Source: an uncultured Bacteroidales bacterium (GTDB lineage: Bacteria; Bacteroidota; Bacteroidia; Bacteroidales; FEN-979). From it: a stretch of DNA of 62,483 bases. Below, piece after piece: positions 5,491 through 59,123 of the stretch. The stretch covers positions 1 to 62,483 of the forward strand of contig CAIJYT010000149.1 in NCBI GenBank assembly GCA_903824935.1. The letters run 5' to 3'. The stretch's first letter is position 1; each line of letters starts with the position of its first letter. Position numbers and translations under genes: made by a program. A model generated the notes under the pieces. That model was not told the DNA's origin, ran no database searches, and saw only the letters and a list, made by a program, of their open reading frames with translations.

Positions 5491-5513
5491 TTCAATGTTC
5501 AATATTCAATATT
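5491..5513. repeat. Heptamer tandem array (TTCAATR)x3, nuoM-nuoN spacer
   Basis: ttcaatg ttcaata ttcaata tt. Confidence 0.7.
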
Positions 5514-5570
5514 ATTCGCACCAATTGTTTATTCCATTTGTGTGCTCATTAAGGCTTCGCCGAACGACAT

Positions 5571-7022
5571 TCATCTTATAATTCCAATGACCTGCCCCAC
5601 CCCATTCTCCGCCATTTTCATAAACATGCCCGGGAAAATTCCTATCCAGAGAACCATGATCACGATTGCTATAAGCGGTATCATTTCCTTCCAGCTCAGA
5701 TCGCTTACCTGTTCAGTCACCGCATTGGTGTTTCCAAGCATAACCCTCTGGTACATCCACAGCATGTAAAGTGCGCTGAAAATGATTGTAAGTCCTGCCA
5801 CTGCTGCAAAAACCATATTGTATTTAAACATGCCCAGGAGGATGAGGAACTCACCCACAAAGCCGTTGGTAAGCGGAAGTGCAATGCTTCCAAGCAAAAT
5901 AATCATGAAGAATGCCGCCAGGCGCGGGGCTTTGATCGCAATCCCTCCGAGTTCCGAAATGCTGGTGGTCTTTGTCCTTGCCTCTATATACTGTATGATG
6001 ATAAAAAGCCCCACGATATTAATCCCGTGCGAAATCATCTGTATCATGGCCCCCTGCATCGCCTGTGCATTCAGGACCATGATCCCTGCAGCAACAAGGC
6101 CCAGGTGGGCAATTGAAGAATAAGCGATCAGCCGTTTCAGGTCATCCTGTCTTATTGCAATCAGAGAAGCATAAACAATGCCCGTCACGGGTAAAATAAT
6201 GAAAAGGCCGTTGGTCGTGTTAAGCACCGAAAAAGTTATCGGAATCATCCAGCGTATCATCCCGAACAATCCCATTTTGGACATCAGTCCGCCAAGCAGC
6301 ATGCTTCCCGGATAAGGCGCCGTTACGTAGGTATCCGGCTGCCAGGTATGGAATGGAAAGATTGGAACCTTTATTGCAAAGGCGATAAAGAATGCCAGGA
6401 ATACCCAGATCTGTTCGTCCGGTTTAAGGTTGCTTGCATAAAGCCAGATATGATCGAAGGAATGAGGAAGCGGTGTACGGAAATACAGGAAGATAATAGC
6501 AACCAGCATCAGCAGGCTGCCGCTGAAAGTATAGGCAAAGAATTTAAAGGTGATCCTGATCCTGTCTTTCCCTCCCCAGAAAGCGGCAATGAAATACGCC
6601 GGGATCAGCGCGAGTTCCCAGAAAATATAAAACACCATCCCGTCAAATGCCGTGAAAACGCCCATTAGTCCTGCCTGCATAAGAAAGATGAGACTGTAAA
6701 ATGAAGCAGGCCTGTTGATCTTCTGCCCGAAAGTCGTGTAAATGATGATGGGTACAAGGAAGGTAGTCAGAAGCACCATCAGCATGCTCAGCCCGTCAAT
6801 CCCGAATTTCAGGCTTATTCCATAACTTGCAAGCCAGTCGAGGCGGAACAGCAGATGGCAATGGCAGTATAGGAAATACTGGACCAGGGCTGCGATGCTG
6901 ATGCCGAATTCAACCAATGCCATTGCGAACGCCAGGTTACGGGCCCATTTTTCTTCCTTCACGAAGAACAGGCCGGTTGCCGCAAGCAGGGGCAGGAATA
7001 TCAGTGTAAACGTCAGCATCAC
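5571..7022 (-). CDS. nuoM: NADH-quinone oxidoreductase subunit M
   Basis: GIDGLS, FYIFWELALIP, AIKVPIFPFHTW, GFVGEF motifs. Confidence 0.95.
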   Translation of the reverse strand: MMLTFTLIFLPLLAATGLFFVKEEKWARNLAFAMALVEFGISIAALVQYFLYCHCHLLFRLDWLASYGISLKFGIDGLSMLMVLLTTFLVPIIIYTTFGQKINRPASFYSLIFLMQAGLMGVFTAFDGMVFYIFWELALIPAYFIAAFWGGKDRIRITFKFFAYTFSGSLLMLVAIIFLYFRTPLPHSFDHIWLYASNLKPDEQIWVFLAFFIAFAIKVPIFPFHTWQPDTYVTAPYPGSMLLGGLMSKMGLFGMIRWMIPITFSVLNTTNGLFIILPVTGIVYASLIAIRQDDLKRLIAYSSIAHLGLVAAGIMVLNAQAMQGAMIQMISHGINIVGLFIIIQYIEARTKTTSISELGGIAIKAPRLAAFFMIILLGSIALPLTNGFVGEFLILLGMFKYNMVFAAVAGLTIIFSALYMLWMYQRVMLGNTNAVTEQVSDLSWKEMIPLIAIVIMVLWIGIFPGMFMKMAENGVGQVIGIIR

Positions 7023-8908
7023 AAAAAGATATTAATAAACAGTATCAGCAAAATCCCAATGATCATAAAGAACAGGTACATACCCACATGCCCGCTCTGG
7101 AGGTAGCGGATTCCATTACTGAATCTCACAACCAGTGTACCTGTCCCGTTTACGATACGGTCGATGAACCTCTCCTCGATGAATTTTTGAAGTGCATCCG
7201 AAATGCGCAAAGCCGGTCTTACGAAAAGGTAATCGTAAACCTCATCCACATAAAATTTATTTTCAATCAAACGAATCAATACGTTCCGGCTAGCGGTTCC
7301 AGGATCACGATTCACGGTTTTCCGGTATGCGACATAAGCCATCAGCAGTACCAGTAAAAGCACCACTACCATATTCGACCACTCCAGCCTTGCAGCCACA
7401 TGATGAGGCTGAAGCTGGTTAAGCCTTACTGCATCGGCAAAAACAGGCGCAAGGAATTCTTTAAGCATGCCGCTCCCACCCATGATTTCAGGGATGTTCA
7501 GGAAACCCCCGAAGAACGCCAGCACGGCGAGTATGATAAGAGGTATTGTCATCACTGAAGGTGATTCATGTATTTTTAATGACTGCGGATCACTACCTCT
7601 GTTTTTTCCTGCGAAAGTGAGGAAGAGTAGGCGGAACATATAGAATGCCGTCATCATCGATACTCCCACGGCAACAACCCAGAGCGGCAGGCTTGATCCG
7701 AATACGTTGCCCAGGATCTCATCCTTGGAGAAGAATCCCGAAAGCGGCGGCAATCCGGCAATAGCCAGGGTGCCGACCAGGAATGTCCAATAAGTTTTCG
7801 GCAAAGCATTTTTCAGTCCTCCCATTTTCCTGATATCCTGTTCCCCTTCAAGGGCATGGATCACGCTTCCCGCCCCGAGGAACAGCAGGGCTTTGAAGAA
7901 GGCATGGGTCATAAGGTGGAACATGGCCCCTGTAAATGCTCCCACGCTTAATGCAAGAAACATGTAGCCGAGCTGGCTGATGGTTGAATATGCCAGGACT
8001 TTCTTGATATCGTTCTGAAAGATGGCTATTGCCGCGGTCATCAGCATGGTGGCCAGGGCAGTGATGCCCATGACTTCCATGGTAACAGGTGCAAGAACAT
8101 ATAACACACCCGAACGTGCAACCATATATACGCCTGCCGTGACCATGGTTGCTGCATGTATCAATGCTGAAACAGGGGTCGGACCGGCCATTGCATCGGG
8201 AAGCCAGGTGTAAAGGGGAATCTGGGCGCTCTTGCCAACCGCTCCAATAAACAGCAGCATTGTAATGGCAACCATTGTCCCGCTGCCGGCTGACATTGTT
8301 TTTGCCTGTTCAAAGACCACCTGGTAACCGAAACTCTTGAAAGTCGTAAAAATAAGGAACATCCCCAGCAGGAACCCCAGGTCGCCTATGCGGTTCATGA
8401 TAAAGGCCTTTTTTGCGGCATTGTTGAATTGCTGGTTTTTAAACCAGAAACCGATCAGCAGGTAAGAACATAAGCCAACGCCTTCCCATCCGATGAACAT
8501 CACTGCATAATTCGCACTCATCACCAGGATCAGCATGAAAAAGATGAAGAGGTTCATGTATGCAAAAAAACGGTTGAACCCCTTATCGTGCGACATGTAG
8601 CCGATGGAATACACATGGATCACAAACCCCACACCGGTAATGATCAGCATCATCAGGATAGACAGGGAGTCGATCAGGAACTCGAAGGGTATGGAAACGG
8701 GGCCGAGGGAAATCCAGTCAAAAAAGCGAAAAGCGAAAGGCGAAAGGCGAAAATTAAATAATACAATCAGTGAAAGAATAAAAGAAATGAGAATAGTCCC
8801 GGGACCGAGAATGGCAGCAACACGTTTCGGAATGCCGCGATAGCCCAGGCCCAGGATGATGAATCCTAAAAGAGGCAGTAAAGGAACCAATGCAATGAGT
8901 ATAGTCAT
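7019..8908 (-). CDS. nuoL: NADH-quinone oxidoreductase subunit L
   Basis: IHVYSIGYM, GWEGVGLCSYLLIGFW, GKSAQIPLYTWLPDAMAGPTPVSALIHAATMV motifs. Confidence 0.95.
   Translation of the reverse strand: MTILIALVPLLPLLGFIILGLGYRGIPKRVAAILGPGTILISFILSLIVLFNFRLSPFAFRFFDWISLGPVSIPFEFLIDSLSILMMLIITGVGFVIHVYSIGYMSHDKGFNRFFAYMNLFIFFMLILVMSANYAVMFIGWEGVGLCSYLLIGFWFKNQQFNNAAKKAFIMNRIGDLGFLLGMFLIFTTFKSFGYQVVFEQAKTMSAGSGTMVAITMLLFIGAVGKSAQIPLYTWLPDAMAGPTPVSALIHAATMVTAGVYMVARSGVLYVLAPVTMEVMGITALATMLMTAAIAIFQNDIKKVLAYSTISQLGYMFLALSVGAFTGAMFHLMTHAFFKALLFLGAGSVIHALEGEQDIRKMGGLKNALPKTYWTFLVGTLAIAGLPPLSGFFSKDEILGNVFGSSLPLWVVAVGVSMMTAFYMFRLLFLTFAGKNRGSDPQSLKIHESPSVMTIPLIILAVLAFFGGFLNIPEIMGGSGMLKEFLAPVFADAVRLNQLQPHHVAARLEWSNMVVVLLLVLLMAYVAYRKTVNRDPGTASRNVLIRLIENKFYVDEVYDYLFVRPALRISDALQKFIEERFIDRIVNGTGTLVVRFSNGIRYLQSGHVGMYLFFMIIGILLILFINIFL
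8724..8751. repeat. Heptamer array (ARGCGAA)x4 inside nuoL
   Basis: aagcgaa aagcgaa aggcgaa aggcgaa, read as FRLSPFAFRF in NuoL. Confidence 0.75.
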
Positions 8909-8925
8909 GTTTTGTCTTTGTCTTT

Positions 8926-9039
8926 AGCGAGCATTTTGCATAAGCGGCATCAGGTTCAAGGAGCTTTACGTTTGCAGGAGGAGCATATCACTATATCGCT
9001 TCGCAGCAACCGTAGCCGCGATGCAATGATGCGAGCGCT
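8926..9039. repeat. ~114-nt imperfect palindromic element (REP/MITE-like) between nuoK and nuoL
   Basis: Left arm agcgagcattttgcataagcggc pairs with right arm gccgcgatgcaatgatgcgagcgct; inner ggtt/aacc and atat/atat pairs; abuts the nuoK stop. Confidence 0.55.
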
Positions 9040-9357
9040 TCACCACTTCAACTTATTTAAAACATCTATGTCAATAGAATGCGTCGTCTTATATATCAGC
9101 ACGAATATCGCCAGCCCTATGGCCACCTCGGCAGCAGCAACCACCATGATGAAAAACACGAAGATCTGACCTGCCGGATCGTTCGAATATGCCGAAAACG
9201 CCGCCAGCAGAAGGTTCACCGAATTGATCATCAGCTCGACCGACATCAGTATCACCAATGCATTCCTCTTGATCAAAACCCCTATCACCCCTATCGAAAA
9301 CAGCATGGAGCAGAAGATCAGGTAGTGGTTTATCGGTATGGTAGTGAGTGTGTTCAT
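9040..9357 (-). CDS. nuoK: NADH-quinone oxidoreductase subunit K
   Basis: LMSVELMINSVNL, GQIFVFFIMVVAAAEVAIGLAI. Confidence 0.95.
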   Translation of the reverse strand: MNTLTTIPINHYLIFCSMLFSIGVIGVLIKRNALVILMSVELMINSVNLLLAAFSAYSNDPAGQIFVFFIMVVAAAEVAIGLAIFVLIYKTTHSIDIDVLNKLKW

Positions 9358-9367
9358 TTATTATTAC

Positions 9368-9409
9368 TTCAACATTCAATGTTCAATATTCAATATTCGA
9401 TATTCAAAT
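9368..9409. repeat. Heptamer array (consensus TTCAATA)x6, nuoJ-nuoK spacer, overlapping the nuoJ stop
   Basis: ttcaaca ttcaatg ttcaata ttcaata ttcgata ttcaaat. Confidence 0.8.
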
Positions 9410-9904
9410 TTGTTCTTTTTTCCCCAGCAATACCGCTCCCACCATCGCCGTTAAAAACAGTATTGATGAAACTTCGAACGGCAGCATATAATCCCTGTAA
9501 AGTACTATTCCCAGTTCTTTTACAAGTCCTATCTGCGATCCTTCGGGCTGCTGCATAACATGCAGGTCATAGCCCCTCAAAACCCCGATAAGTACCATGC
9601 CCAGCATAACTCCGGCAATTATTGCCGAAGCTTTTACCCAGATTGGCTTCGGTGATTGTTCGTCCTTATTAAGATTTAAAAGCATCACTGTAAACAGGAA
9701 AAGCACCATGATGGCGCCGGCATATACGATAATGTGGACAATAGCCAGGAACTGGGCGTTCAGGAGGATATAATGCCCTCCAATGGCGAAAAAAGTCAGT
9801 GTAAGATAAAGCACGCTGTGTATGGGCTTCTTTGAGAGCAGCATCATCACTGCGCTGTAAAGTGCGAGTATGGAAAGGAAATAAAATATGTAACTAGTGA
9901 ACAT
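9404..9904 (-). CDS. nuoJ: NADH-quinone oxidoreductase subunit J
   Basis: IIVYAGAIMVLFLF and PFEVSSILFLTAMVGAV. Confidence 0.95.
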   Translation of the reverse strand: MFTSYIFYFLSILALYSAVMMLLSKKPIHSVLYLTLTFFAIGGHYILLNAQFLAIVHIIVYAGAIMVLFLFTVMLLNLNKDEQSPKPIWVKASAIIAGVMLGMVLIGVLRGYDLHVMQQPEGSQIGLVKELGIVLYRDYMLPFEVSSILFLTAMVGAVLLGKKEQI

Positions 9905-10472
9905 TATGCCTCTGATTTTTATCCTTTTTGAACTCCAGTACTTCGGTTGTCTGCCGTTTGCTTACATCTATTCTTTTTGAAGGATCAACAGGTTCTACCA
10001 GTAAATCCTTGCCATAGATGAATTTATCCCTGTCATAACCGGCCTTCACAATTGTTTTCGTGAGGAAGATTGCTTCCTTGGGACAGGCTTCTTCGCACAG
10101 CCCGCAGAAAATGCACCTGAGCATATTGATCTCGTAGGTGGATGCATATTTTTCCTCCCTGTACAGATTTTCCTCCCCTGGCTTGCGTTCAGCAGCCACC
10201 ATGGTGATTGCTTCGGCCGGGCAGGCGACAGCGCAAAGCCCGCAGGCCGTGCAGCGTTCCCTTCCCTCATCATCTCTTTTCAGCACATGTCTGCCCCTGT
10301 AAATCTCGGAAAATTCCCGTTTTACTTCCGGATATCGCACCGTTGTCTTTTTCGTAAAGAGATGGCCTAATGTGATCCACATACCTTTAAGGATTGCAGG
10401 CAAATAGATCTTCTCCCAAAAAGACATCTTTTTGTTGGAAACGACCCTGCTCCGTTTAGTCAATCCTGTCAC
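9894..10472 (-). CDS. nuoI: NADH-quinone oxidoreductase subunit I
   Basis: Two CxxCxxCxxxCP ferredoxin motifs (CTACGLCAVACP, CIFCGLCEEACP). Confidence 0.95.
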   Translation of the reverse strand: MTGLTKRSRVVSNKKMSFWEKIYLPAILKGMWITLGHLFTKKTTVRYPEVKREFSEIYRGRHVLKRDDEGRERCTACGLCAVACPAEAITMVAAERKPGEENLYREEKYASTYEINMLRCIFCGLCEEACPKEAIFLTKTIVKAGYDRDKFIYGKDLLVEPVDPSKRIDVSKRQTTEVLEFKKDKNQRHNVH

Positions 10473-10477
10473 AGCCC

Positions 10478-11500
10478 TTATTTATTTAATAAAATTACCA
10501 CTCCCGTTATCAGAATATTCAGAATTGCCAGCGGTATCAGGCCTTTCCAGCCAAGCCTCATCAGCTGGTCATACCTGAAACGGGGCAAAGTCCAGCGAAC
10601 CCACATGAAGATGAACCCGAAGAACGTGATCTTTGCAAACAGCACCAGGAAGCTTACAAAGGCAAACGCATTGGGTGACAGACCAAGCCTGTCAATGAAA
10701 GGAAAATGATATCCGCCCATAAACAAAGTAGCCATTACCGCTCCCGAAATGAACATATTGATATATTCCGAAAACAGGTAGAATCCCAGTTTCATGCTGC
10801 TGTATTCGGTATGGTAGCCTCCCACCAGTTCCGTCTCGCATTCGGGAAGGTCAAAGGGTGAACGGTTTGTCTCTGCAAATGCACAGATAAGGAAGATCAT
10901 GAATGCCACGGGCTGGTAAAAAATGTTCCAGTGAAGGCCTTGTTGCTGGTTCACGATTTCGCGCATACTCAGTGAACCTGTCATCATCACTATGGCGATG
11001 ATCGACAGGCTCATGGCCAGTTCATAGCTAATCATCTGTGATGATGCGCGGATGGCACCCAGTAACGCATATTTGTTGTTGGAAGCCCATCCCCCGATCA
11101 TAATGCCGTAAACACCGATGGAAACGATGGCAAAGATGTAGAGAATTCCAATGTTCACATCAGCCATCTGAAGGCTGTAGGTTTGTCCGTTGACGACAAT
11201 ATCGGGGCCCCAGGGGATCACTGCGCTGGTGAGACAGGCAATGAACATGGTCAGCGAAGGGCCAAGGATATAGAGGAATTTATCTGCCGTATTGGGCATG
11301 AATTCTTCCTTGAAGAAGAGCTTTATGCCGTCGGCAAGGGGCTGGAACAATCCCCATGGGCCCGCCCTGTCGGGGCCGAACCTGTCCTGGAAGAACCCGG
11401 CCATCTTTCGTTCGATCAATGTCGAATACATGGCCACAACAAGGCTCATCACCAAAACGGCTGAGGCAAGCAGGATTTTAAATATCAGCATTGTGCCCAT
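10478..11500 (-). CDS. nuoH: NADH-quinone oxidoreductase subunit H
   Basis: QPLADGIKLFFKE, AETNRSPFDLPECETELVGGYHTEYS, PRFRYDQLM. Confidence 0.95.
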   Translation of the reverse strand: MGTMLIFKILLASAVLVMSLVVAMYSTLIERKMAGFFQDRFGPDRAGPWGLFQPLADGIKLFFKEEFMPNTADKFLYILGPSLTMFIACLTSAVIPWGPDIVVNGQTYSLQMADVNIGILYIFAIVSIGVYGIMIGGWASNNKYALLGAIRASSQMISYELAMSLSIIAIVMMTGSLSMREIVNQQQGLHWNIFYQPVAFMIFLICAFAETNRSPFDLPECETELVGGYHTEYSSMKLGFYLFSEYINMFISGAVMATLFMGGYHFPFIDRLGLSPNAFAFVSFLVLFAKITFFGFIFMWVRWTLPRFRYDQLMRLGWKGLIPLAILNILITGVVILLNK

Positions 11501-12468
11501 TATTCCTGTGGTTCCGTTGTACCTTCGATAGGATGAATGATAGATCCCTTTTTCATTTCTTCATAATAATTACTGCTGATGACCGATTTCCGTTTGATCT
11601 TTCGCGGCCCTTCGATCACCCAGTCATTAATGTCTTTCTTCTCAAACCTGCATTCATTGCAGATGAATTCCTCTACTTCCCCGAACTGGTCCTTACGGCC
11701 CGTGATGCGGTAGATCTCGTTCCCGAACATCCATGCTGCGACTTTACCGCTGCATTTGCTGCACTCCCTGTGCGCATCCATGGGTTTAAGGAACCATACC
11801 CTGCTCTTGAAACGGAAAGTCCTGTCGGTAAGCGCTCCCACAGGGCATACGTCTATCATGTTCCCCGAAAAATCATTGTCAATTGCAGCCTGGATGAAGG
11901 TGCTGATTTCCATGGTATCTCCACGGTAAAGCATTCCGTGTGCCCGCTTTTTTGTGATTTGTTCTGCGGCCAGAACACAGCGGTAACAATGTATGCAGCG
12001 GTTCATATGCAGCTTGATCAGTGGGCCTATGTCCACAATGGGATATTCCCGCCTGGCTTCAAGCGTAATGGTTTCTTCAATCCCAAACCCGAAACTCAGG
12101 TCCTGCAGGTCGCATTCCCCTGCCTGGTCACAAACGGGGCAATCCAGAGGGTGGTTTAAGAGAAGAAATTCAACAACTCCTCTGCGGGCGATTTTTACTT
12201 CCTCCGAAAGGGTATTTTCAACTACCATCCCGTCCTGTACCGGTGTACTGCATGATGCTACCAGCTTGGGCATGGGGCGGGGATCCTTGAACGAACTCCT
12301 GGCGACTTTCACCAGGCAGCTCCTGCACTTTCCCCCGCTGCCTTTCAGCTTTGTGTAATAGCACATCGCAGGAGGAACAACCTTCCCTCCTATCATGCGC
12401 GCAGCCTGGAGGATCGTTGTGCCTTCTTCAACTTCGATCAGGATGTTATCTATTGTTACCTTGAACAT
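11500..12468 (-). CDS. nuoG: NADH-quinone oxidoreductase subunit G, short form (Fe-S N-terminal part only)
   Basis: Fe-S motifs CY...GKCRSC...ASC, HPLDCPVCDQAGEC, CIHCYRC...CPVGAL; 322 aa, lacks the large C-terminal molybdopterin-like domain. Confidence 0.9.
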   Translation of the reverse strand: MFKVTIDNILIEVEEGTTILQAARMIGGKVVPPAMCYYTKLKGSGGKCRSCLVKVARSSFKDPRPMPKLVASCSTPVQDGMVVENTLSEEVKIARRGVVEFLLLNHPLDCPVCDQAGECDLQDLSFGFGIEETITLEARREYPIVDIGPLIKLHMNRCIHCYRCVLAAEQITKKRAHGMLYRGDTMEISTFIQAAIDNDFSGNMIDVCPVGALTDRTFRFKSRVWFLKPMDAHRECSKCSGKVAAWMFGNEIYRITGRKDQFGEVEEFICNECRFEKKDINDWVIEGPRKIKRKSVISSNYYEEMKKGSIIHPIEGTTEPQE

Positions 12469-12486
12469 TCTTTATAACCCTAAAAA

Positions 12487-12597
12487 TTGAATTTCGAATA
12501 TTGAACAACGAATATCGAATTTTGAATTTAATATCAGATTGACAAAAGTGGTGCTATATAATTTTTCCATTCTACATTCAATGTTCAATGTTCATTT
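12487..12597. repeat. Inverted pair of heptamer arrays in the nuoF-nuoG spacer
   Basis: 12487-12528 ttgaatt tcgaata ttgaaca acgaata tcgaatt ttgaatt; 12570-12597 ttctaca ttcaatg ttcaatg ttcattt (opposite orientation, includes the nuoF stop). Confidence 0.75.
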
Positions 12598-13875: not shown

Positions 13876-14433
13876 CCTGTTGATTGTCCGTCTTCAGATT
13901 TATTCCTGAGGTCTTCGATAATTTTTTCAACCCCCTTACTTGTCATATGCTCATAAAATTCAGTGTTAACCTGCATGGAAGGGCCGCTTCCGCATGCTCC
14001 CAGGCATTCCACCTCTTTCAGGGTAAACATGCCGTCGGGAGTGGTTTCCCCGGTTTCAATATGAAGGTAATCCTTGATATGCTGTAACACCTCTTCTCCG
14101 CCGCAGATCGCACACGGACCTGTATGGCAGACTTCCAGTATGTATTTCCCCATTTTTTCAAGATAAAACATTGAATAAAATGTTGCCACTTCGTAAACCT
14201 CCATAGGGTTAAGCCCCAACAGTGAAGCCACATAATCCATTATATCCACACTGAGGTAACCACCGAGTTTTTCCTGGGCAATATGCAGCACAGGCAGCAA
14301 TGCCGATTTCTGCCTCCCTTCAGGATACCTGCGGATGAGGGAGCGGATTTTCTCCAGCGTTTCGTCTGAAAACGAAACAGCTTTGTTCTCCCCTTACAAA
14401 CAGATGATGGTTAACCTTATTCCCTGCGTTCAT
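13854..14433 (-). CDS. nuoE: NADH-quinone oxidoreductase subunit E (5' end appears frameshifted)
   Basis: 2Fe-2S motif VCHTGPC...ECLGAC. The NuoE frame extends to ~14390 (ENKAVSFSDETLEKIRSLIRRYPEGRQKSALL) and is closed by TAA; the ATG at 14433 is in frame only if one G is removed from the G4 run (14390-14393). Confidence 0.85.
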
Positions 14434-14444
14434 GAATTTTTTTT

Positions 14445-14480
14445 ATTTCGCTATTTCGCTATTTCACCATTTCGCTATTT
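14445..14480. repeat. Octamer array (ATTTCGCT)x4, nuoD-nuoE spacer
   Basis: atttcgct atttcgct atttcacc atttcgct attt. Confidence 0.8.
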
Positions 14481-14482
14481 AT

Positions 14483-15658: not shown

Positions 15659-15670
15659 AAACCATCTGTG

Positions 15671-15716
15671 AATAGCGAAAAATAATTTCGCTATTTCGCT
15701 ATTTCGCCATTTCGCT
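15671..15716. repeat. Octamer array (ATTTCGCT)x4 plus one inverted unit, nuoC-nuoD spacer
   Basis: aatagcgaaa ... atttcgct atttcgct atttcgcc atttcgct. Confidence 0.8.
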
Positions 15717-15725
15717 TTTTCTTTA

Positions 15726-16220: not shown

Positions 16221-16261
16221 TGTTAATCACAGCGGATAACATTCTCCGCCCCTCTGAATGA

Positions 16262-16825: not shown

Positions 16826-16840
16826 AATTTCGCTATTTAA

Positions 16841-17224: not shown

Positions 17225-17247
17225 CGTTTATTTAGATTAATTCTTTA

Positions 17248-17255: not shown

Positions 17256-17271
17256 CTGTTTTCTGAAATTA

Positions 17272-20098: not shown

Positions 20099-20105
20099 GA
20101 TGGAT

Positions 20106-22521: not shown

Positions 22522-23493
22522 TTATTTATCAGAAATAAAAGGCAGCCTGGAATAAAATGAATCATCGCAAAGCCTTGCTACACCTGTGATTCCTGCAAGT
22601 TCACCCAGTTCAGAAACAAAGACAGGGATATTACAGCCATGATCTTTCAATGCCTCAAGGAAAGGCTTTTCAAACAGGGAATATGAATTTGCGATGTTCC
22701 CTCCAATGGTAAGGCATTCTGCATGGAACTTCAGAAGCCACGGGGCAAGGAACACTCCCATATGGAAGCCGAATTCATTGAAGATGAGGGATGCGGGATT
22801 CGGGATGCTGACGTTTGGCGATGATCCTGCATCCTGCATCCTGTATCCTGCATCAAGTTCCATAAGCTCCTTTACACCCGTAATTTCTTCACCCGTAACT
22901 GCTTTGTACCTGCCAATAAACCATCTTGTGGAGAAATGGTCGTCGGCAATGCTGTTACCGAAAGGCAGGTGATAAACGCAGCCGTACTCAGGGACTTCAG
23001 GGCCTGACTCCACGGGAATGCCATCTGAAATGAAGGCTGACCCGAACCCGGTTCCAAGGGTGACAGCCATATTTTTCCTGTAAGCCGAAGCTTTGCCTGT
23101 CCAGGCCTCGCCTATGGCAAAACTTGTCGCATCATTTAAAAATCTTAAGGGTACCGAAACATCCAGGCCAAGACGGCTAAGGAGTTCCTGACGCACATTG
23201 ATGCCATATAAGCTGTCGTATTTTTGAACTCCCTTAAACCAGGCGATGCCCCCTGGGTAATCGAATGGGCCGGGCATTGCAAACCCTATCCCTCCAAGGT
23301 CTTCTTTTCCTATGAGGTTAATCAGCCTGGCCAGAGCTTCACTCCAGCTGTTCAGGATGATTTCAGCGGAAGCCTGGCTGTTAACATCTTCCCTTACTTT
23401 AAATACATCCGAAATAACATGTCCTCCTGGGCTTATACCCATGCAGGTAATATGGCTCCCTCCGATATCAGCGCCAATAAGAATTTTTGTCAT
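22522..23493 (-). CDS. ROK family sugar kinase
   Basis: IGADIGGSHI, GFAMPGPFDY, FLNDA, TLGTGFGS. Confidence 0.9.
   Translation of the reverse strand: MTKILIGADIGGSHITCMGISPGGHVISDVFKVREDVNSQASAEIILNSWSEALARLINLIGKEDLGGIGFAMPGPFDYPGGIAWFKGVQKYDSLYGINVRQELLSRLGLDVSVPLRFLNDATSFAIGEAWTGKASAYRKNMAVTLGTGFGSAFISDGIPVESGPEVPEYGCVYHLPFGNSIADDHFSTRWFIGRYKAVTGEEITGVKELMELDAGYRMQDAGSSPNVSIPNPASLIFNEFGFHMGVFLAPWLLKFHAECLTIGGNIANSYSLFEKPFLEALKDHGCNIPVFVSELGELAGITGVARLCDDSFYSRLPFISDK
22783..22854. repeat. Inverted pair of heptamer arrays inside the ROK CDS
   Basis: gatgagg gatgcgg gattcgg gatgctg - 13 nt - atcctgc atcctgc atcctgt atcctgc atc. Confidence 0.75.
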
Positions 23494-50177: not shown

Positions 50178-50200
50178 ATAAAATCAAAGGAGAAGAAATC

Positions 50201-52165: not shown

Positions 52166-52995
52166 AACTCGTCGGGCAAGGCTTTCAGCTGGGCATAAGT
52201 GAATACGGGCCCGTCCTTGCAGATATAAGTACTTCCGATATTGCACCTGCCGCATTTACCCAGTCCGCACTGCATCTTCATTTCAAGAGTAGTGATAACA
52301 TGCTCTGGGGAAAATCCCAGGCGGTCGAGCGACTGCAGTGTGTATTTGATCATGATCGGCGGTCCGCAGGTGATCACCTTGGTGTTGGCGATCTCAGGCT
52401 TCACCACTTCTTCGAGGATCTTGGGAACCACTCCAACATTCTCCTTCCAGTTATCCTCAGCTTTGTCAATGGTCAGAACCACCTTGATGCTGGTGTTTTT
52501 CTTCCATTCTTCTATTTCTTCCTTATAACAAAGGTCTGCGGATGTACGGGCACCATAAAGAATGGTAAAGTCCTTGTAATCGGTACGATGGTCAATACAG
52601 TATTGTATCAATGAACGCAAGGGGGCCAGGCCTATTCCACCACCCACGAACAAAAGATTCCTGCCTTTGATCTCTTCCACTGGAAACCAGTTACCGTAGG
52701 GGCCGCGAATTCCAACCTCATCCCCCTCCTCGATATTCAGGTGAATGTCGGCGGTAACAACACCGGCCTTTTTGATCGAGCAGTCAAAATATCCTTTTCT
52801 CGTGGCAGAAGATGAAATACAGAACGTGCATTCACCGGACCCAAGCAGTGAGAATTCAACGAATTGCCCAGGCTCCCAGGTGAACTTTTCCATCAGGGCT
52901 TCATCCTTGAATTTCAATCTGTAAGTCCTCACGTCAGGCGTTTCCTGTATTATTCTGTCAACTTTTGCCAGGGAGGGAACTAATAATGCTTCCAT
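52162..52995 (-). CDS. flxA: FlxA: FAD/NAD(H)-binding oxidoreductase with 2Fe-2S (PyrK/AsrB-like)
   Basis: GPYGN, VGGGIGLAPLRS, CGPPIM, MQCGLGKCGRC..CKDGPVF; start set at ATG 52995. Confidence 0.85.
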   Translation of the reverse strand: MEALLVPSLAKVDRIIQETPDVRTYRLKFKDEALMEKFTWEPGQFVEFSLLGSGECTFCISSSATRKGYFDCSIKKAGVVTADIHLNIEEGDEVGIRGPYGNWFPVEEIKGRNLLFVGGGIGLAPLRSLIQYCIDHRTDYKDFTILYGARTSADLCYKEEIEEWKKNTSIKVVLTIDKAEDNWKENVGVVPKILEEVVKPEIANTKVITCGPPIMIKYTLQSLDRLGFSPEHVITTLEMKMQCGLGKCGRCNIGSTYICKDGPVFTYAQLKALPDEF

Positions 52996-53011
52996 AATTT
53001 CAAAATTTAAA

Positions 53012-53056
53012 TAGCGAAGTAGCGAGGTAGCGAAATAGCGAAACCACATTTCGCTA
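53012..53056. repeat. Octamer array (TAGCGARR)x4 plus one inverted unit, flxB-flxA spacer
   Basis: tagcgaag tagcgagg tagcgaaa tagcgaaa ... atttcgcta. Confidence 0.8.
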
Positions 53057-53074
53057 CTTATTTTTATACTTTGT

Positions 53075-54133
53075 TTACAATACAACAGGTGTCGATGCAA
53101 CATGGTTAACTACGTCGAAAATACTGATGTTCACGGGGCAGGAAATGGCGCAATGCCCGCAGCCCACGCAGAGATTCACTCCGAAGCGTTCCTTATAAAA
53201 CACGAACTTGTGCATGGACCTCTGCCTCCAGCGTCGGTATTTTGCCGGGCGTGGATTATGGCCCCCTGCTTCAAGTGTAAAGTAAACATTGTTGCAGGAA
53301 TCGTAGCTCTTGTAACGAACACCTGTATCCTTGATCTTCACGTCGGAAATCTTGAAACAATGGCAGGTCGGGCAAATGAATGCGCAGGTGTTGCAGCTTA
53401 CGCAATTGCGTGAAGCTTCTTCAAATGCAGGCGAATTAAAGCGTTTCGACATTTTTTCATTCACGTCCTTGTAATCCATTTTCAGGCGGAACGAAGCAGC
53501 AAATGCCTCATATTGTTTTTTAATATCATCCATTGCCGACTGCTGACTGCCGACTGCCGACTGCTTCTCCAGGTTTTCCTTTAGAAAATTCTCTCCCTTT
53601 TCAGTTCGAGCCTGAATATAAAGCTTACCTCCGATTCCATTGACGAGGGCCACATCCGTAGCATCCAGGTTCTCCACATCATAATCAAGGGAGGTACAGA
53701 AACAATGGGTATCGGCCTTGTCGCAACGGGTTGAGAAGATTACGGTGTTAGCCCTGCGTTTCTGGAAGTCGCTGTCGATGTAATCCCATTTATTCACTGC
53801 TTCCAGAACCTGCAGCCCGCGTGCATCGCAATGCTTCACTCCCAATATGACACGGGGCACAGCCAGGTGGTCATCCTCCGTTTCAGAGACAGAGGTCCCG
53901 GCGCTGTTTGATTCATATTTCATGATCTTGGAGGAACGCGGGAAGAACAGGGGTTTCACGCTCATCGTCATGGCAATGGGTGAGTCCGGGTCGCATTCCT
54001 TCAGCGATGAAACCTTTTTATAATCATACTTCCCGAATTTCTCCACAGGAGCATAGGTCTCGTGCTTGCTGATGATGGCTTCATACAGTTTCTGCAAGCC
54101 AGCTTTATCGGTAACAAAGGTTGAAAAACTCAT
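53075..54133 (-). CDS. flxB: FlxB: 4Fe-4S dicluster protein (AsrA/HydB-like)
   Basis: GVKHCD, CFCTS, CVSCNTCAFICPTCHCF, CVGCGHCAISCP. Confidence 0.8.
   Translation of the reverse strand: MSFSTFVTDKAGLQKLYEAIISKHETYAPVEKFGKYDYKKVSSLKECDPDSPIAMTMSVKPLFFPRSSKIMKYESNSAGTSVSETEDDHLAVPRVILGVKHCDARGLQVLEAVNKWDYIDSDFQKRRANTVIFSTRCDKADTHCFCTSLDYDVENLDATDVALVNGIGGKLYIQARTEKGENFLKENLEKQSAVGSQQSAMDDIKKQYEAFAASFRLKMDYKDVNEKMSKRFNSPAFEEASRNCVSCNTCAFICPTCHCFKISDVKIKDTGVRYKSYDSCNNVYFTLEAGGHNPRPAKYRRWRQRSMHKFVFYKERFGVNLCVGCGHCAISCPVNISIFDVVNHVASTPVVL
53534..53564. repeat. Heptamer array (TGCYGAC)x4 inside flxB
   Basis: tgccgac tgctgac tgccgac tgccgac tgc, read as QSAVGSQQSA. Confidence 0.8.
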
Positions 54134-54148
54134 AATTCTTTCTTCGGA

Positions 54149-55000
54149 TTACATGATAAAATCATCGGGATCCTTGAGGCTGTATTTATAGAAAGCCCCG
54201 CGGTCGCCTTCTTCAACTCCGGCCAGGTGATTCTGGAAATTTTCGTAAATCACCTTCTCGTTCTGTTTATGCAGCAGGTGCAGCGGAAGATGGCTGGGAC
54301 AGGCTTTTTCACAGTTCCGGCAGTCAACGCAGCGGCCTGCCAGGTGCAGCGACCACGTCATCAGGGCATGGAAAGCGCTTGAAGAGGTGTTCGTTCCGTT
54401 GTACAAAGTTGATGTTTCCTGATCAATGCAGCACTTGGCGCAATAACAGAGAGGGCATGAATGTCTGCAGGCGTTACAGCGTATACAGTTTTCGAAGATC
54501 TCTTCGAAATATTCCCTGCGTTCAACCAGGCCTTTGGTGGCAAGCTCGGTAATGTCGGCATTTACAATATAATCCTTCTTCCCCTGTAGCTTTCCGAGCA
54601 TTTCATCATATACAACGGCATCCGGGATGAAACATTCCATGCAGTTTTGCATCTTGTTCCCCTTATCGTCAACCACACCCTCACAGGCGACCCCTATGAT
54701 ATAAAGCTTATCTCGTTTTACCTGGCTTTCGGTTAGCAGGAGGTTAAGGGAACGGCTGTCACAGCCTTTCACAACCAAACCCACCCTCTTGTTCCTGGTA
54801 TGATCGGCTTTGAGGTAATTTGTAAGGTTGAATACGGATTTTTCCGTAAAAACAAGGACCGACGTTTCTTTTGGATCGGTAATCACAACGGGTACCTGGT
54901 TGTCGTCGAAGCCGCTCATCCGGTAACCGACGAACACGTCGATCTTCCCTTCTGCGAAAAGCTTTGCGGCAATGTCCCGGATTTGGTTTGAATAGTCCAT
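54149..55000 (-). CDS. flxC: FlxC: 4Fe-4S dicluster protein
   Basis: KGCDSRS, CIRCNACRHSCPLCYC..C, HLAGRCVDCRNCEKACP. Confidence 0.8.
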   Translation of the reverse strand: MDYSNQIRDIAAKLFAEGKIDVFVGYRMSGFDDNQVPVVITDPKETSVLVFTEKSVFNLTNYLKADHTRNKRVGLVVKGCDSRSLNLLLTESQVKRDKLYIIGVACEGVVDDKGNKMQNCMECFIPDAVVYDEMLGKLQGKKDYIVNADITELATKGLVERREYFEEIFENCIRCNACRHSCPLCYCAKCCIDQETSTLYNGTNTSSSAFHALMTWSLHLAGRCVDCRNCEKACPSHLPLHLLHKQNEKVIYENFQNHLAGVEEGDRGAFYKYSLKDPDDFIM

Positions 55001-55485
55001 TATCGGTTAAAGTTTTCTTTTTTATACAAATGTAGAGGGCCGAGTTTTACAACATCATCGGTCACTTTTTTCACGACCTGGGCGAACTTGGCGCCTTCGG
55101 CAGCGGATACCCAGCTGAACTGTACCCTGTGCCCATGGAATCCCACCATTTTAAGCAGTTCTTTGGTTACCAGGAAACGCCTGCGGGCGTAATAATTCCC
55201 GCTGATGTAATGGCAGTCGCCCGGGTGACAGCCCGAGATCAGCACGCCATCCGCAGTGGTTTGTAAAGCCTTGATGATAAACCAGGGATCGACCCGTGAA
55301 GAACAGGGAACCCTGATGATGCGGATGTTCGGCGGATACTGTGTACGGGATGTACCTGTAAGGTCCGAGCCCGCATAGGAACACCAGTTGCATAGAATAC
55401 CCATAATCACCGGTTTCCAGTCCGGAGGCGCGATGAGCTCGGGTTTCTCAATGCTGACGATTTTGTCTTTTGATTCTGCTTCCAT
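55000..55485 (-). CDS. flxD: FlxD / MvhD-like 2Fe-2S subunit
   Basis: LCNWCSYAG.D, RVPCSSRVDP, GCHPGDCHY, WVSAAEG. Confidence 0.88.
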   Translation of the reverse strand: MEAESKDKIVSIEKPELIAPPDWKPVIMGILCNWCSYAGSDLTGTSRTQYPPNIRIIRVPCSSRVDPWFIIKALQTTADGVLISGCHPGDCHYISGNYYARRRFLVTKELLKMVGFHGHRVQFSWVSAAEGAKFAQVVKKVTDDVVKLGPLHLYKKENFNR

Positions 55486-57458
55486 TAAATAGCAACTATC
55501 TCGTTAATGATTTGAGGATCTGTAAAACCGGCCAGGTTTATAGCCATGGAACGGCAGATGGCTACGCATGAGCCGCACCCCTGGCATACGCCTTCGTTGA
55601 TTTTGGCCACGGTACGCATTTCCTTTGCGCCATGTCCGAGGGGAATATCTTCAGTTACGATAGCCTGGTAAGGACAAACTTTCACACAGTTCTGGCAGCC
55701 GCTGCAAAATTCCTTGCTGACCGTTGAGACCATCGGGTCCTTCTTGATGGTGTCACCTGCGAAAAGTCCGCAAACCTTGGCTGCACAAGCCGAAGCCTGG
55801 GCAACAGTCTCGGGAATATCCTTGGGCGCCTGGGTGCATCCTGCCAGGAAAATTCCGGCTTTGGCCGTTTCAACAGGGCGAAGTTTGGGATGTGCTTCCG
55901 AGAGATATCCGTACTTATCATAGGATATGCCCAGTAGCCTTGCCAGTGCCGGGTTCCCTTTATCGGGAATGACAGCAGTTGCCAATACCACCAGGTCGGC
56001 TTCAACCTCAACTTCCTGTCCAAGCTGACCGTCTTCCCCGCGAACCATCAGTTTGTCGCCTTTCTGGTATATCTTCGACACCCGCCCTCTGAGGTAAACA
56101 GCTCCTGTTTCCACCTGGGCGCGGTTTACGAATTCTTCATATCCCTTGCCTGCGGCACGGATGTCCATATAAAAAATATAGGCCCTCGAATCATGTACTT
56201 TATGATGAAGGAGGATGGCGTGCTTGGCTGTATACATACAGCAGATCTTCGAGCAAAACTCTATTCCCTTGGCTTTATCGCGGGAACCAACGCATTTGAT
56301 AAAAACAACGGTCTTTGGGACTTTCCCGTCGGATGGCCTTACAGGCACACCTCCGGTGGGGCCGTTAGCCGAGACCATTCTTTCGAATTCAAGCGAATTG
56401 ATGATGTCTTTGTAACGTCCTACACCATACTCTTCGTAAGGCGTTGCATCCCAAAGGTCATAGCCGGTTGCAACAACAACAGCGCCTATTTCCCTTTCGA
56501 TCACCTCATCCACCATCTTATAATCAATAGAGCCTTTTTCGCATACCTTGGCACAGATACCGCATTTGCCTTTCAGTAAATAGGTGCAGTGTTCGGCATC
56601 GATAACGGGTTTGTTGGGCACGGCCTGGGGGAATGGCGTATAAATTGCTTTACGCTTGTCTATCCCCATATTATATTCGTTCGGCACCTTTACAGGGCAT
56701 TTCTGTGAGCAGGCACCGCAACCTGTACAGGTCTTGAAATTCACATAGGAGGCTTTCTTCCGGATTTTGGCCTTGTAATTCCCGACGTAACCGTCGAGTT
56801 CTATCACCTCGGAATACGGAATAAGCTCAATGTACGGATGGGAGGCTACATCCACCATTTTTGGAGTAAGGATGCACTGTGAGCAGTCGAGTGTGGGGAA
56901 GGTTTCATCAAGCTGCGACATGCGGCCGCCTATTGATGGGCTTCTTTCGACCAGGGTCACCGGGATGCGGGCATCTGCAATATCCAGGGCTGCCTGTATC
57001 CCTGCAATCCCGCCTCCGATAACCAGGGCACGTTTTGTCACGGGGACCGAAATCTCATGCAGCTGTTCGTTGGCTATGGATTTGGCAACAGCCATCCTTA
57101 CCAGGTCACCTGCTTTATCTGTCGCCCCTTTCTTATCTTTCTGGTGCACCCATGATGAATGTTCCCTGATGTTTGCGCATTCCAGGAGGTAAGGGTTCAT
57201 ACCTGCATCGCTGAGGGCCTTTCGGAAGGTCTTCTCATGCATGCGGGGGGAACAGGCGGCAACGACGATAGACGTCAGCCTGTGCTGTACAATGGCGTCC
57301 CTGATCATCTGCTGACCGGGATCGGAACACATATACTTATAGTCAATCGCAAATTTGACGTCCCTTATCTTTTTGGCTTCCTCGACAACGGTCGGGACAT
57401 CCACAAAATCGGCAATGTTGGCGCCGCAGAAACAAACGAATACTCCTACTCTTGCCAT
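55485..57458 (-). CDS. hdrA: Heterodisulfide reductase subunit A (flavin-bifurcating)
   Basis: VGVFVCFCG, AACSP..HE.TF, NIRE, IGGGIAG, TFPTLDCSQC, CVGSR...CSKICC, C-terminal ferredoxin. Confidence 0.95.
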   Translation of the reverse strand: MARVGVFVCFCGANIADFVDVPTVVEEAKKIRDVKFAIDYKYMCSDPGQQMIRDAIVQHRLTSIVVAACSPRMHEKTFRKALSDAGMNPYLLECANIREHSSWVHQKDKKGATDKAGDLVRMAVAKSIANEQLHEISVPVTKRALVIGGGIAGIQAALDIADARIPVTLVERSPSIGGRMSQLDETFPTLDCSQCILTPKMVDVASHPYIELIPYSEVIELDGYVGNYKAKIRKKASYVNFKTCTGCGACSQKCPVKVPNEYNMGIDKRKAIYTPFPQAVPNKPVIDAEHCTYLLKGKCGICAKVCEKGSIDYKMVDEVIEREIGAVVVATGYDLWDATPYEEYGVGRYKDIINSLEFERMVSANGPTGGVPVRPSDGKVPKTVVFIKCVGSRDKAKGIEFCSKICCMYTAKHAILLHHKVHDSRAYIFYMDIRAAGKGYEEFVNRAQVETGAVYLRGRVSKIYQKGDKLMVRGEDGQLGQEVEVEADLVVLATAVIPDKGNPALARLLGISYDKYGYLSEAHPKLRPVETAKAGIFLAGCTQAPKDIPETVAQASACAAKVCGLFAGDTIKKDPMVSTVSKEFCSGCQNCVKVCPYQAIVTEDIPLGHGAKEMRTVAKINEGVCQGCGSCVAICRSMAINLAGFTDPQIINEIVAI

Positions 57459-58402
57459 TATTCAACCTCACTTTCTGCCTGAACGGCTTTTTTACCCTTT
57501 ACAGGTTTCTTCGGTTCTTCAATAACTTCTCCAATATGGGCCAGTGCAGAGTCGACTGGAATGATATGTTTGGCGAACATCATCTTTGCCTTCGGGAACC
57601 CGAAGGCAATGGCCATCAACTGGGTCAGATAGAAAACCGGGAGATCATATTTAACATGGTATTTCTTTTCAATATCGTGCTGCCTCATATCAAGGTTCGA
57701 CTGGCAGAGAGGACAGGCCACCACGATTGCATGGGCTCCGCTTTCCTTCGCCATTTCCAGGATCTTGCCGCTCAGCTGAAGCACAATATCCGTATCGGAA
57801 ATTGAAAAAGAAGCGCCGCAGCATTCGGTCTTGAAATCGAAGGGGGTAGCCTTCGCACCCAGGGCTTCCACGATGCGGTCCATCGACATAGGATATTCCG
57901 GTGAATCAAACTGGGTGATTGCTTTAGGGCGGGTAAGCAAACAGCCGTAATAACAGGCCAGCTTCATCCCGCTGATAGGATTGGTCACCTTTGCCTTAAT
58001 GGCTTCAAGGCCCATGTCTTCATAGCAATACTGAAGCATGGATTTTATTGCAACCTTTCCTTCATAATTGCCTTCACCCACCACTGCAGTGTTGATCCTT
58101 GCTGCCAGTTCGGGATTTTCATCCATATGCACCTTGGTTGCCTTCATCCTCTGGTAACAGGAAGCGCAGGGAATAGTCATTGTATCGTTGCTGAGTTTTT
58201 CGGCAAGGACCAGGTTTCGCAGCGGAAGGGCATATGAAAGGCTTTCGCTCAGGGTATGTGCTGAGGTAGCACCACAGCAATTCCAGTCGGGGATCTCTTC
58301 CATTTCGACATCCATGGTCTTCATAACCATTTTTACCGTTTCGTCAAATTCCTCACTGGTGCCGTGGGCCGAACAGCCCGGGAAATAACTTACTTCCTTC
58401 AT
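57458..58402 (-). CDS. hdrB: Heterodisulfide reductase subunit B (CCG domains)
   Basis: YFPGC, WNCCGA, PCASC; YYGC, ECCGA, ACPLCQ.NLD. Confidence 0.93.
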   Translation of the reverse strand: MKEVSYFPGCSAHGTSEEFDETVKMVMKTMDVEMEEIPDWNCCGATSAHTLSESLSYALPLRNLVLAEKLSNDTMTIPCASCYQRMKATKVHMDENPELAARINTAVVGEGNYEGKVAIKSMLQYCYEDMGLEAIKAKVTNPISGMKLACYYGCLLTRPKAITQFDSPEYPMSMDRIVEALGAKATPFDFKTECCGASFSISDTDIVLQLSGKILEMAKESGAHAIVVACPLCQSNLDMRQHDIEKKYHVKYDLPVFYLTQLMAIAFGFPKAKMMFAKHIIPVDSALAHIGEVIEEPKKPVKGKKAVQAESEVE

Positions 58403-58413
58403 TTTAAACAGTC

Positions 58414-58986
58414 TTATTTATTCTGTTTTTCAAGCTTTTCTGCCATCTCATACATCTTTTTAATGGCTTTTTTGCTCTTCAATGGCTTCACTCCTAAGGG
58501 GATCTTGCCTTTCAGCAGTGCTGTCGGCGCAAGGTGCATATCCTTAAAGAGGTTCCGGGTACGGATATTGAATTCAGCCATCATCCTTAACTCGTAATTC
58601 CTTCCGTAACGCTTGATCATATCCAGGAAGATCTCATGGAATTTCCTGATGTTCTTTACCTGTTTGGAATCAGGGGTGAAGTTTTCTTCAATGGCCAGGT
58701 GACGTACTGCTTCCATTACTGCAGGTATGTTGATCTCACGCGGACAGCGTCCCGAGCAGGCCGAACATGTAAGGCAGAACCAGGTGGAGTTAGCCATCAG
58801 GGTTTCTTCCTTAAGTTCCAGCTTGATCATCTGCATGATCTCGCGGGGTGGAAAATCCATGAAATTTGAGACCGGACAAGTCGACACGCATTTGCCGCAC
58901 TGGTAACATTCCAGCACATCAGCGCCGCTTTTCTTATTCACGGCTTCCAGGAAAGCGTTCTTACCTTTGTATGAGAGTGTTATCAT
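58414..58986 (-). CDS. hdrC: Heterodisulfide reductase subunit C
   Basis: CYQCGKCVSTCP and WFCLTCSACSGRCPR. Confidence 0.93.
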   Translation of the reverse strand: MITLSYKGKNAFLEAVNKKSGADVLECYQCGKCVSTCPVSNFMDFPPREIMQMIKLELKEETLMANSTWFCLTCSACSGRCPREINIPAVMEAVRHLAIEENFTPDSKQVKNIRKFHEIFLDMIKRYGRNYELRMMAEFNIRTRNLFKDMHLAPTALLKGKIPLGVKPLKSKKAIKKMYEMAEKLEKQNK

Positions 58987-59001
58987 ATAAATTCCTTGGA
59001 A

Positions 59002-59029
59002 CTGTTAATATTTTAACAGCCCAAAGTTA
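59002..59029 (-). promoter_or_regulatory. hdr-flx promoter -7 element with adjacent Rex-like palindrome
   Basis: TAACTTTG at 59022-59029; perfect-arm palindrome CTGTTAA-TATT-TTAACAG at 59002-59019 covering the predicted TSS. Confidence 0.6.
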
Positions 59030-59095
59030 CTAAAGATTTCTTTTGGACAGAATCTAAATTAGGTGGGGTCTTGATTCTCTGTTTTCGTCTTGTTT

Positions 59096-59123
59096 TTCAC
59101 GGATCACGGTTCACGGTTCACAT
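59096..59123. repeat. Heptamer array (WTCACGG)x4 overlapping the acyltransferase stop
   Basis: ttcacgg atcacgg ttcacgg ttcacat. Confidence 0.75.

Follow-up and report, generated by a model that had tools for sequence, protein, structure and literature searches.

Tandem 7- and 8-base arrays at operon junctions of an uncultured Bacteroidales bacterium as probable gene-less arms of a four-helix-bundle cassette

Introduction

The 23S rRNA of Coxiella carries an intervening-sequence element in which tandem heptamers precede a gene for the protein S23p within inverted termini; the account of this element and of its Leptospira counterpart reports variable numbers of heptamers upstream of the start codon and signs of lateral transfer and gene decay, and it describes Xanthomonas S23p as a pentameric ring (Warrier et al. 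2016, PMC4990558). Heptamer repeats near stop and start codons have been published for Xanthomonas, Nostoc and Beggiatoaceae (Rehm 2015, PMC4692102; MacGregor 2015, PMC4679880), and at a single hairpin site of the Nostoc tRNA-Leu intron, P6b, one repeat class is described as repeatedly replacing another (Kaasalainen 2015, PMC4476775). Here we analyse a 62,483-nt stretch of DNA from an uncultured Bacteroidales bacterium of the FEN-979 lineage (assembly GCA_903824935.1, contig CAIJYT010000149.1; hereafter the window), in which tandem arrays of 7- and 8-nt units occupy gene junctions and coding loops, among them those of the nuo and hdr-flx operons, and we relate these arrays to cassettes that carry a four-helix-bundle gene (TIGR02436).

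These cassettes share with the S23p-bearing intervening sequences the protein family, inverted termini and heptamers upstream of the start codon. Unlike those elements, which sit in an rRNA helix, all sites found here are protein-gene junctions or coding loops, and they come with hundreds of gene-less arms in about ten unit families whose contents are replaced between sister genomes. In its working, the system resembles an intervening-sequence element transferred to mRNA operons, and it is not a member of the rRNA class. With the long simple-sequence heptamer repeats it has in common the period of 7, about four units per array, strand-polar placement near stops and starts, convergent inverted pairs and some arrays in open reading frames (ORFs); those repeats are treated there as one unit family per genome, with G-quadruplex or translational roles proposed, and the accessible text of the two papers describes neither filled and empty alleles nor flank changes (PMC4692102, PMC4679880). 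The terms “helix bundle”, “intervening” and “S23” have no match in MacGregor’s main text (PMC4679880). Class replacement at a site is shared with Nostoc P6b, which, as described, is a single RNA locus with two repeat classes, lacks an associated protein and showed no recombination (PMC4476775).

The repeat class, its placement at stops and starts, heptamers before the S23p gene of an rRNA element, and class replacement at one hairpin are therefore already published. Our literature search, whose reach excluded supplements (such as MacGregor’s ORF tables) and most subscription papers, returned no description of armed four-helix-bundle cassettes in operons. What is new here is that seven of eight junction arrays are unlike those of a ~95%-identical sister genome, and that ~30 upstream coding bases diverge along with them, mostly silently.

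Period-7 and period-8 arrays in the genome

A genome-wide scan returned 165 arrays with a period of 7 and 153 with a period of 8, with at most five for each other period from 4 to 16; two local shuffles of the genome contained no array of period 7 or 8. Every array listed in an earlier reading of the window made from its letters only (the sequence-only reading) exists, including three within coding sequences (nuoL, a ROK-family gene and flxB). A looser threshold gave 434 arrays in about ten unit families across the genome, 337 of them with three or four units, and a handful of unit families are each present at many unlinked sites. A few families of period 7-8, dispersed and far above chance, are likewise the mark of heptamer/octamer long simple-sequence repeats (STRR-like).

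A purpose-made simple gene caller supplied the gene positions beyond the window. About 150 stop codons in the genome are directly trailed by 7-8-base repeat runs. Among arrays at co-directional junctions, those with a purine-rich mRNA sequence sit close to the upstream stop (106 of 126 no more than 15 nt away), and the pyrimidine-rich ones are near the downstream start in 44 of 91 cases (no more than 30 nt away); at convergent junctions, 52 of 64 arrays are purine arms at the stop of their own gene. Complementary neighbour arrays follow the order purine-then-pyrimidine in 41 cases and the opposite order in 3, and 26 further neighbour pairs combine arms from different unit families. The distance between paired arms ranges from 0 to 140 nt, plus two of about 450 nt. 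Such strand-polar placement at stops and starts, with convergent pairs, is a further STRR-like trait. The stop codon falls within the array in 52 of 155 stop-adjacent cases, and the stop triplet tends to match the arm unit (TGA, 27/40; TAG, 35/74; genome-wide, 33% and 16%, respectively). We rejected the general rule that arms serve to give stops in all frames, because the unit contains no stop triplet in 35 of these 155 arms. Inside called genes, 67 arrays were counted genome-wide.

The sequence-only reading had also seen a concentration of arrays in the long energy operons of the window. Locally, this holds for the nuo and hdr operons, with arrays at 7 of 20 junctions compared with 9.4% genome-wide (p=0.002, for operons picked post hoc). 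It does not hold as a rule: arrays occupy 8-10% of junctions whatever the operon length, and electron-transfer genes lie upstream of arrays in ~6 of 62 cases versus ~3 of 62 controls (p=0.49; random 800 kb, 62 of 521 available controls, proteins cut to the first 420 residues and Pfam labels sorted by hand). The genes upstream of arrays are chiefly general housekeeping genes. Arrays are unevenly spread over contigs (chi-square 254, 86 degrees of freedom), and the nuo/hdr cluster is one patch of this contig-wise clustering; the window as a whole has 10 arrays versus 7.5 expected. A 15-kb plus-strand locus had been reported as array-free and is so (0 of 8 junctions), an absence expected with probability 0.45. 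Genes with low GC content at third codon positions (GC3) rarely precede arrays (19/508, versus 64-73 in each of the top three fifths).

Filled, truncated and empty cassettes

The sequence-only reading had linked such arrays to inserted four-helix-bundle genes and suggested that those of the window, which it correctly took to lack such a gene, are empty sites or scars. The genome (G000) contains two TIGR02436 genes. One is flanked by a purine and a pyrimidine arm, both of the 8-mer family that the window has at 14445, 15685 and 53012, and the other has no arms. The armed gene, at ~1186-1650 of contig C183, is flanked by a divergent helix-turn-helix-like gene; the start of its other neighbour resembles dinB by eye only. 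GxxExxY genes, named in that reading as another possible content, were not found in this genome.

The TIGR02436 family is present in 55 of 61 genomes searched. We compared 40 four-helix-bundle genes from relatives, comprising 30 top hits and 10 from nuo/hdr loci, eight of these 10 belonging to one clade. An upstream arm accompanies 33 of them and a downstream arm 26; 22 have arms on both sides, versus 0 of 75 control windows, so that complementary termini with repeats before the ORF are found here as in S23p elements. In filled cassettes, which lie between a stop and a start codon, the purine arm precedes the gene and the pyrimidine arm follows it; gene-less arrays share this polarity. The only ORF within filled cassettes encodes the four-helix-bundle protein; no endonuclease of the kind encoded by homing elements is found in them. 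In sampled sequence, six gene-less genomes yielded 2 arrays in 351 kb and ten gene-bearing genomes 35 in 431 kb.

At nuoJ|nuoK, an intact gene lies between arms in 7 of 25 relatives (G003, G005, G006, G007, G010, G023 and G026), and G002 has a truncated copy with a deletion from mid-gene to the 3' arm. The 5' arm alone is present in G008 and in the window, where it spans 9368..9407 (minus strand, as are all window features given here) and begins within the nuoJ TGA. The window spacer aligns without gaps over 54 nt to the 5' arm of the filled G003 allele. Sister pairs differ at this junction: G006 is filled and G000 empty, and G007 is filled and G008 empty. The eight nuoJ|K proteins group in a single clade (100/99), with a branching that conflicts with the host tree. 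The empty-site idea thus holds at nuoJ|nuoK, where filled, truncated and arm-only alleles occur.

Filled alleles were also seen elsewhere. At flxB|flxA, one of 27 usable relatives (out of 30 scored, after removal of 3 mis-mapped ones) is filled: G031 has a TIGR02436 gene between arms of another family, and the window has a short 5' arm and a 3' 8-mer arm at 53009..53060 (array 53009-53043), before the flxA start. At nuoG|nuoH, which has no array in the window, 1 of 26 relatives is filled. Six inserts of relatives from these three junctions all score above the TIGR02436/PF05635 cut-off. The six other array junctions of the window gave no filled allele among the 6-26 relatives scored for each, and the site orthologous to a filled cassette on G006 contig C68 was not found in this genome.

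The nuoJ|K protein matches PDB 2RLD, which has five chains. The four-helix-bundle family is described as homologous to Avd of diversity-generating retroelements, in which, likewise, a target is replaced by a homologous copy with its length unchanged (PMC10053308). The marks of such a retroelement were not seen here: one of six proteins matched the Avd model, with 30 bits where the cut-off is 80, no adenine-specific changes were apparent by eye, and no intact reverse transcriptase is linked. A search of the genome for reverse transcriptase gave a single fragment, scoring below the family cut-off, that ends the 1.6-kb G000 contig C45 (L113), with no link to a cassette; since the genome is 95% complete, this does not establish absence. 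No template/variable repeat pair was seen, and none was searched for.

Further observations concern the sequence around cassettes. Many of them (L037, L041, L044, L049, L052 and others) have a motif, TTACCTTT...CGATTAAG..GAAAA, between the 5' arm and the start codon, which may be a promoter or RNA element; a like motif lies upstream of a Y1 transposase gene in L114. CACAGAG-type repeats occupy the same junctions in L024 (G024; nuoJ|nuoK and nuoM|nuoN), as does a CCCCTCC hairpin in L090 (G023; nuoA|nuoB). Both repeats are presumably associated with GxxExxY and DUF559 genes. At nuoH|nuoI of L019 (G031), a ~300-aa inserted gene is secreted-protein-like and has no relation to the cassette.

Turnover between sister genomes and divergent gene ends

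G006 and this genome share 90-98% identity in the nuo genes. Seven of the eight junction arrays of the window nevertheless differ in content in G006, and the three in-gene arrays are common to both. At nuoM|nuoN, the purine-rich 7-mer arm of the window (ATATTGA family, 5490..5513) has different arms in its place in G006. Upstream of hdrC, the 5' arm at 59096..59121 (CCGTGAA family), which includes the stop of the preceding gene, has one unit more of the same family in G006. At nuoA|nuoB, the window retains a single residual 8-mer unit (16827..16838), and congeners have full arrays of several other families.

Where the spacer has changed, the last 30 coding nt show a mean of 6.0 differences, versus 0.9-2.0 further inside the gene and 0.3 at unchanged junctions. 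Of 41 changed codons in these tails, 31 are silent and 10 are replacements, and the differences show no adenine specificity by eye. Another congener is the closer match to one of the sisters in 7 of 8 tails versus 67 of 535 interior windows (p=5e-6), and the same test of G007 and G008 gave 5 of 7 versus 95 of 516 (p=0.004). The tails are no more distant from other congeners than the interior is (1.10 versus 1.14). Both tail codons of the G000/G006 pair are present in other congeners in 24 of 31 cases, compared with 276 of 558 in the interior (p=0.003).

These findings were replicated on other contigs, with ~92 kb of G006 beyond the two operons (58 orthologues, 50 ends scored). Changed ends are found at 10 of 11 array-bearing and 1 of 39 array-free genes, with 5.1 versus 0.87 tail differences, respectively (p=3.5e-5). 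Homing elements spread site-specifically with co-conversion of flanks; of this, ~30 nt of flank divergence is seen here, and the comparison of congeners matched no donor to it. Contigs from a freshwater run of another study span nuoJ|K, nuoF|G and nuoA|B and differ from the window there at 0-1 positions, which argues against misassembly.

Arrays inside genes

Among 565 nuo and hdr gene copies, interior arrays occur, besides C-termini, at just three sites. At NuoL residue ~52, 12 of 23 orthologues have arrays, all of them pyrimidine arms and of at least six unit types; in the window, the in-frame pyrimidine-rich 7-mer arm lies at 8722..8753 in this variable loop (aa ~52-63). The segment is mostly 27-29 aa long, with up to 45 aa, and measures 29 aa in the outgroup; the loop is replaced by the array, not just lengthened. 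Its unit in G035 belongs to a genome-wide family with 77 overlapping matches and none in its two congeners, and in G026 and G011 the unit is local or nearly so. The second site is NuoL residue ~533, with arrays in 3 genomes, and the third is FlxB residue ~190, with arrays of several families in 11 of 32 sequences; the window has an in-frame purine-rich 7-mer arm at 53534..53564 in this variable FlxB loop (aa ~189-198).

The array in the ROK-family gene, which had been listed as a simple array, is an in-frame inverted pair of the GATGCAG family at 22783..22854 (22783-22808 and 22824-22854). The segment is 34-38 aa in three relatives without the pair and 48-62 aa in eight with it, and this hairpin is a true in-frame insertion. 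Arrays within coding sequences preserve the reading frame in all aligned orthologues. Elsewhere in the genome, contig C137 (780-5696) encodes a single 1639-codon ORF with four in-frame arrays of four families.

A 51-nt element that targets purine arms

Within the nuoM|nuoN arm, at 5514..5564, lies a 51-nt dispersed element with a GNA-triloop hairpin and a second predicted hairpin, inserted at G|AA without target duplication. The genome contains 31-35 copies. Copy length is exactly 51 nt in 34 of 34, G precedes the element in 32 of 34, and AA follows it in 33 of 34. Taking the element out restores the array period in 20 of 34 copies versus 0 of 34 shifted controls, and copies were found in purine arms of at least three unit families. 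Compensatory changes flank the loop of the first hairpin, which is mostly GNA; GNA loops are typical of stable single-stranded DNA hairpins. All ten congeners have the element, and none of 50 other genomes does.

REP/REPIN and the small dispersed repeats of Nostoc are likewise very short, genus-restricted and hairpin-forming, with many intergenic copies, and insertion of a hairpin element without target duplication is a REP/REPIN-like trait. Unlike REP/REPIN, the 51-nt element enters only at G|AA in purine arms, and no transposase gene was found alongside it. A RAYT-type partner was sought: the genome has one Y1_Tnp gene, with no element copy or array seen within 1.2 kb around it, and no link to the Y1 transposase was found. 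The element is an unusually clean target-specific mini-element.

Proposed mechanism and alternatives

Based on these data, we propose, with a probability of roughly 0.55, that the arrays are gene-less cassette arms, likely swapped as short patches at fixed, tolerant positions. That they are the arms of a selfish four-helix-bundle cassette is highly probable. The “scar” reading is too narrow alone, since arrays can also take the place of protein loops in frame, and their content changes from one sister genome to the other. Exchange of arms by short-patch replacement is modestly favoured, and a role of the four-helix-bundle protein as catalyst of this exchange is a tentative suggestion. In the proposed sequence of events, the gene would be lost through deletion between short matches in the stem; the arms would outlast it and be targeted in turn by whatever arrives next. 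Each new arm or cassette would come as a short, probably single-stranded patch, which would anneal via ~30 nt of flank or via an older arm, so that old arms could act as landing pads. DNA uptake is possible, as the genome has a ComEC gene. Selection would let only those events persist that fall at gene ends or in flexible loops. Most speculatively, the pentameric Avd-related protein might bind the 7-8-nt units and promote annealing in trans.

Several results weigh against this proposal. Filled alleles were found at only 2 of the window’s 8 array junctions, the genome has 434 arrays and one armed gene, and a purpose-built profile detected no remnants of four-helix-bundle genes beside arrays in the genome. 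Within the family, array density is not correlated with the number of gene copies (rho 0.10); 4 of the 10 gene-bearing genomes, all of other families, had no array in the sample, and genomes with at least four arrays number 0 of 6 without and 4 of 10 with the gene, which is not significant (p=0.23). Neither a nuclease nor an intact reverse transcriptase is linked to the cassette. The NuoL-loop unit is a genome-wide family in just one of three genomes tested. On the other contigs, the tails differ from their own interior only at p=0.06, and for G007/G008 the shared-codon test was not significant (13/19 versus 274/444). Several unchanged junctions are overlapping genes and hence more constrained. 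Tail distance did not track spacer similarity (mean rho -0.03 versus -0.02 inside; 7-11 congeners per junction), so no donor is shown, and local mutagenesis stays a rival.

The main rival, which we consider unlikely, combines insertion-and-decay scars with such mutagenesis: cassettes insert and are deleted, arms remain, and the divergent tails stem from error-prone repair by hairpins or repeats, followed by selection, with no foreign patch. The truncated G002 allele, which has lost mid-gene to 3' arm, fits this account, as do the variable loops between paired arms and the lack of a match between tail donors and spacer type, and substitution rates are raised near indels and repeats. Equal-length, in-frame replacement of the NuoL loop by at least six unit types would, however, need repeated knock-out and rescue, the tails are not further from other congeners than the interior is, and the nuoJ|K protein tree conflicts with the host tree. 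It is less probable still that the repeats are self-propagating and slippage-prone, with four-helix-bundle genes as passengers entering at existing arrays. The excess of arrays over armed genes, the missing within-family correlation and the fact that a second element, of 51 nt, does target arms speak for this reading, and a comparable positional bias is described without such a gene (PMC4692102, PMC4679880). Against this stand the recurrence of few unit families at many unlinked sites, a strict purine-first polarity equal to that of the cassette, and the near absence of arrays from the samples of six gene-less genomes; moreover, slippage is unable to convert one unit family into another.

A functional explanation, in which the arms are protein-binding or RNase III sites that tune operon processing or translation, had been offered by the sequence-only reading beside the empty-site idea, and we regard it as very improbable for the arrays as a whole. 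Fixed placement at stops and starts would suit it, paired arms are predicted to fold at flxB|A (z=-3.1), at nuoC|D and in the ROK gene (about -2), the genome has an RNase III gene, and RNase III is reported to cut the Coxiella element at the first heptamer (PMC4990558). Lone arms fold no better than shuffles (z -1.3 to +1.9), the sites are array-free in many relatives, the family switches between sisters, and there is no tie to operon length or function. Such rapid turnover argues against a conserved role, and an RNA role is possible for paired arms only. Assembly artefact or chimerism at repeats in metagenome-assembled genomes is scarcely credible: several contigs do terminate in arrays and the relatives are mostly fragmented assemblies, but the contigs of another study show the same junctions, in-gene arrays stay in frame across orthologues, and a 30-nt foreign patch with sister-like sides is no expected graph error between ~80% identical genomes.

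A far-reaching form of the cassette proposal, doubtful in our view, is a system free of nuclease and reverse transcriptase in which an Avd-related pentamer would read the 7-8-base period, not the sequence, and home 60-600-base patches between species via ~30-base flanking homology. If true, period-guided homing would keep rewriting gene ends, stop codons and protein loops, the system would carry a 51-base parasite of its own, and it would explain the excess of heptamer and octamer repeats across bacteria. To our knowledge, this excess has been noted for decades without a mechanism, and we know of no function for the four-helix-bundle family; one site with filled, truncated and empty alleles now links the two. 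The ~30 changed coding bases next to a replaced array are a measurable signature, and a defined protein, arms and target make the question testable. Should patch exchange prove real, it would add a new route of gene conversion, through very short homology, that edits housekeeping genes, and use in genome editing might be possible.

Further features of the window

The window encodes nuoA-N at 4102-17224 and hdrCBA-flxDCBA at 52162-58986, and type IX secretion tails among its proteins mark it as a Bacteroidota contig. The flx names are our own labels; the NCBIfam matches are hydrogenase/sulfite-reductase subunits below the cut-off. An Rfam search of the window gave no match.

The remaining junction arrays lie in the nuo operon. 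At nuoF|nuoG, a 5' arm at 12570..12594, which begins within the nuoF TGA, and a 3' pyrimidine-rich arm at 12487..12527 form an inverted pair (predicted stem, z=-1.3). A 5' 8-mer arm of the TAGCGAAA family lies immediately 3' of the nuoD stop (14444..14480), and nuoC|nuoD has a 5' 8-mer arm (15685-15721) with a short complementary arm, together spanning 15670..15721 (z=-2.1). The sequence-only reading had the places of the arrays right; its orientation needed correction at 12487 and 53012, which are reverse-complement, mRNA-pyrimidine-rich arms. The z-score of the ROK-gene pair is -2.0.

Another structured repeat, with GCTCGC/GCTACG motifs, occupies the nuoK|nuoL spacer (8909-9039). Related versions are present at this junction in G002, G007 and G008, and G003, G005, G006 and G010 have 7/8-mer arms there. 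At ~14390, nuoE has an apparent frameshift with one extra G relative to relatives; it is probably an assembly error or strain variant, as contigs of two runs lack one base here, and with the frameshift corrected the likely start is the ATG at 14433. At 322 aa, NuoG of the window is short. G000 contig C43 has, at 10971-11942, a second nuoH-type gene that is distantly related (42% identity), and most congeners have one likewise.

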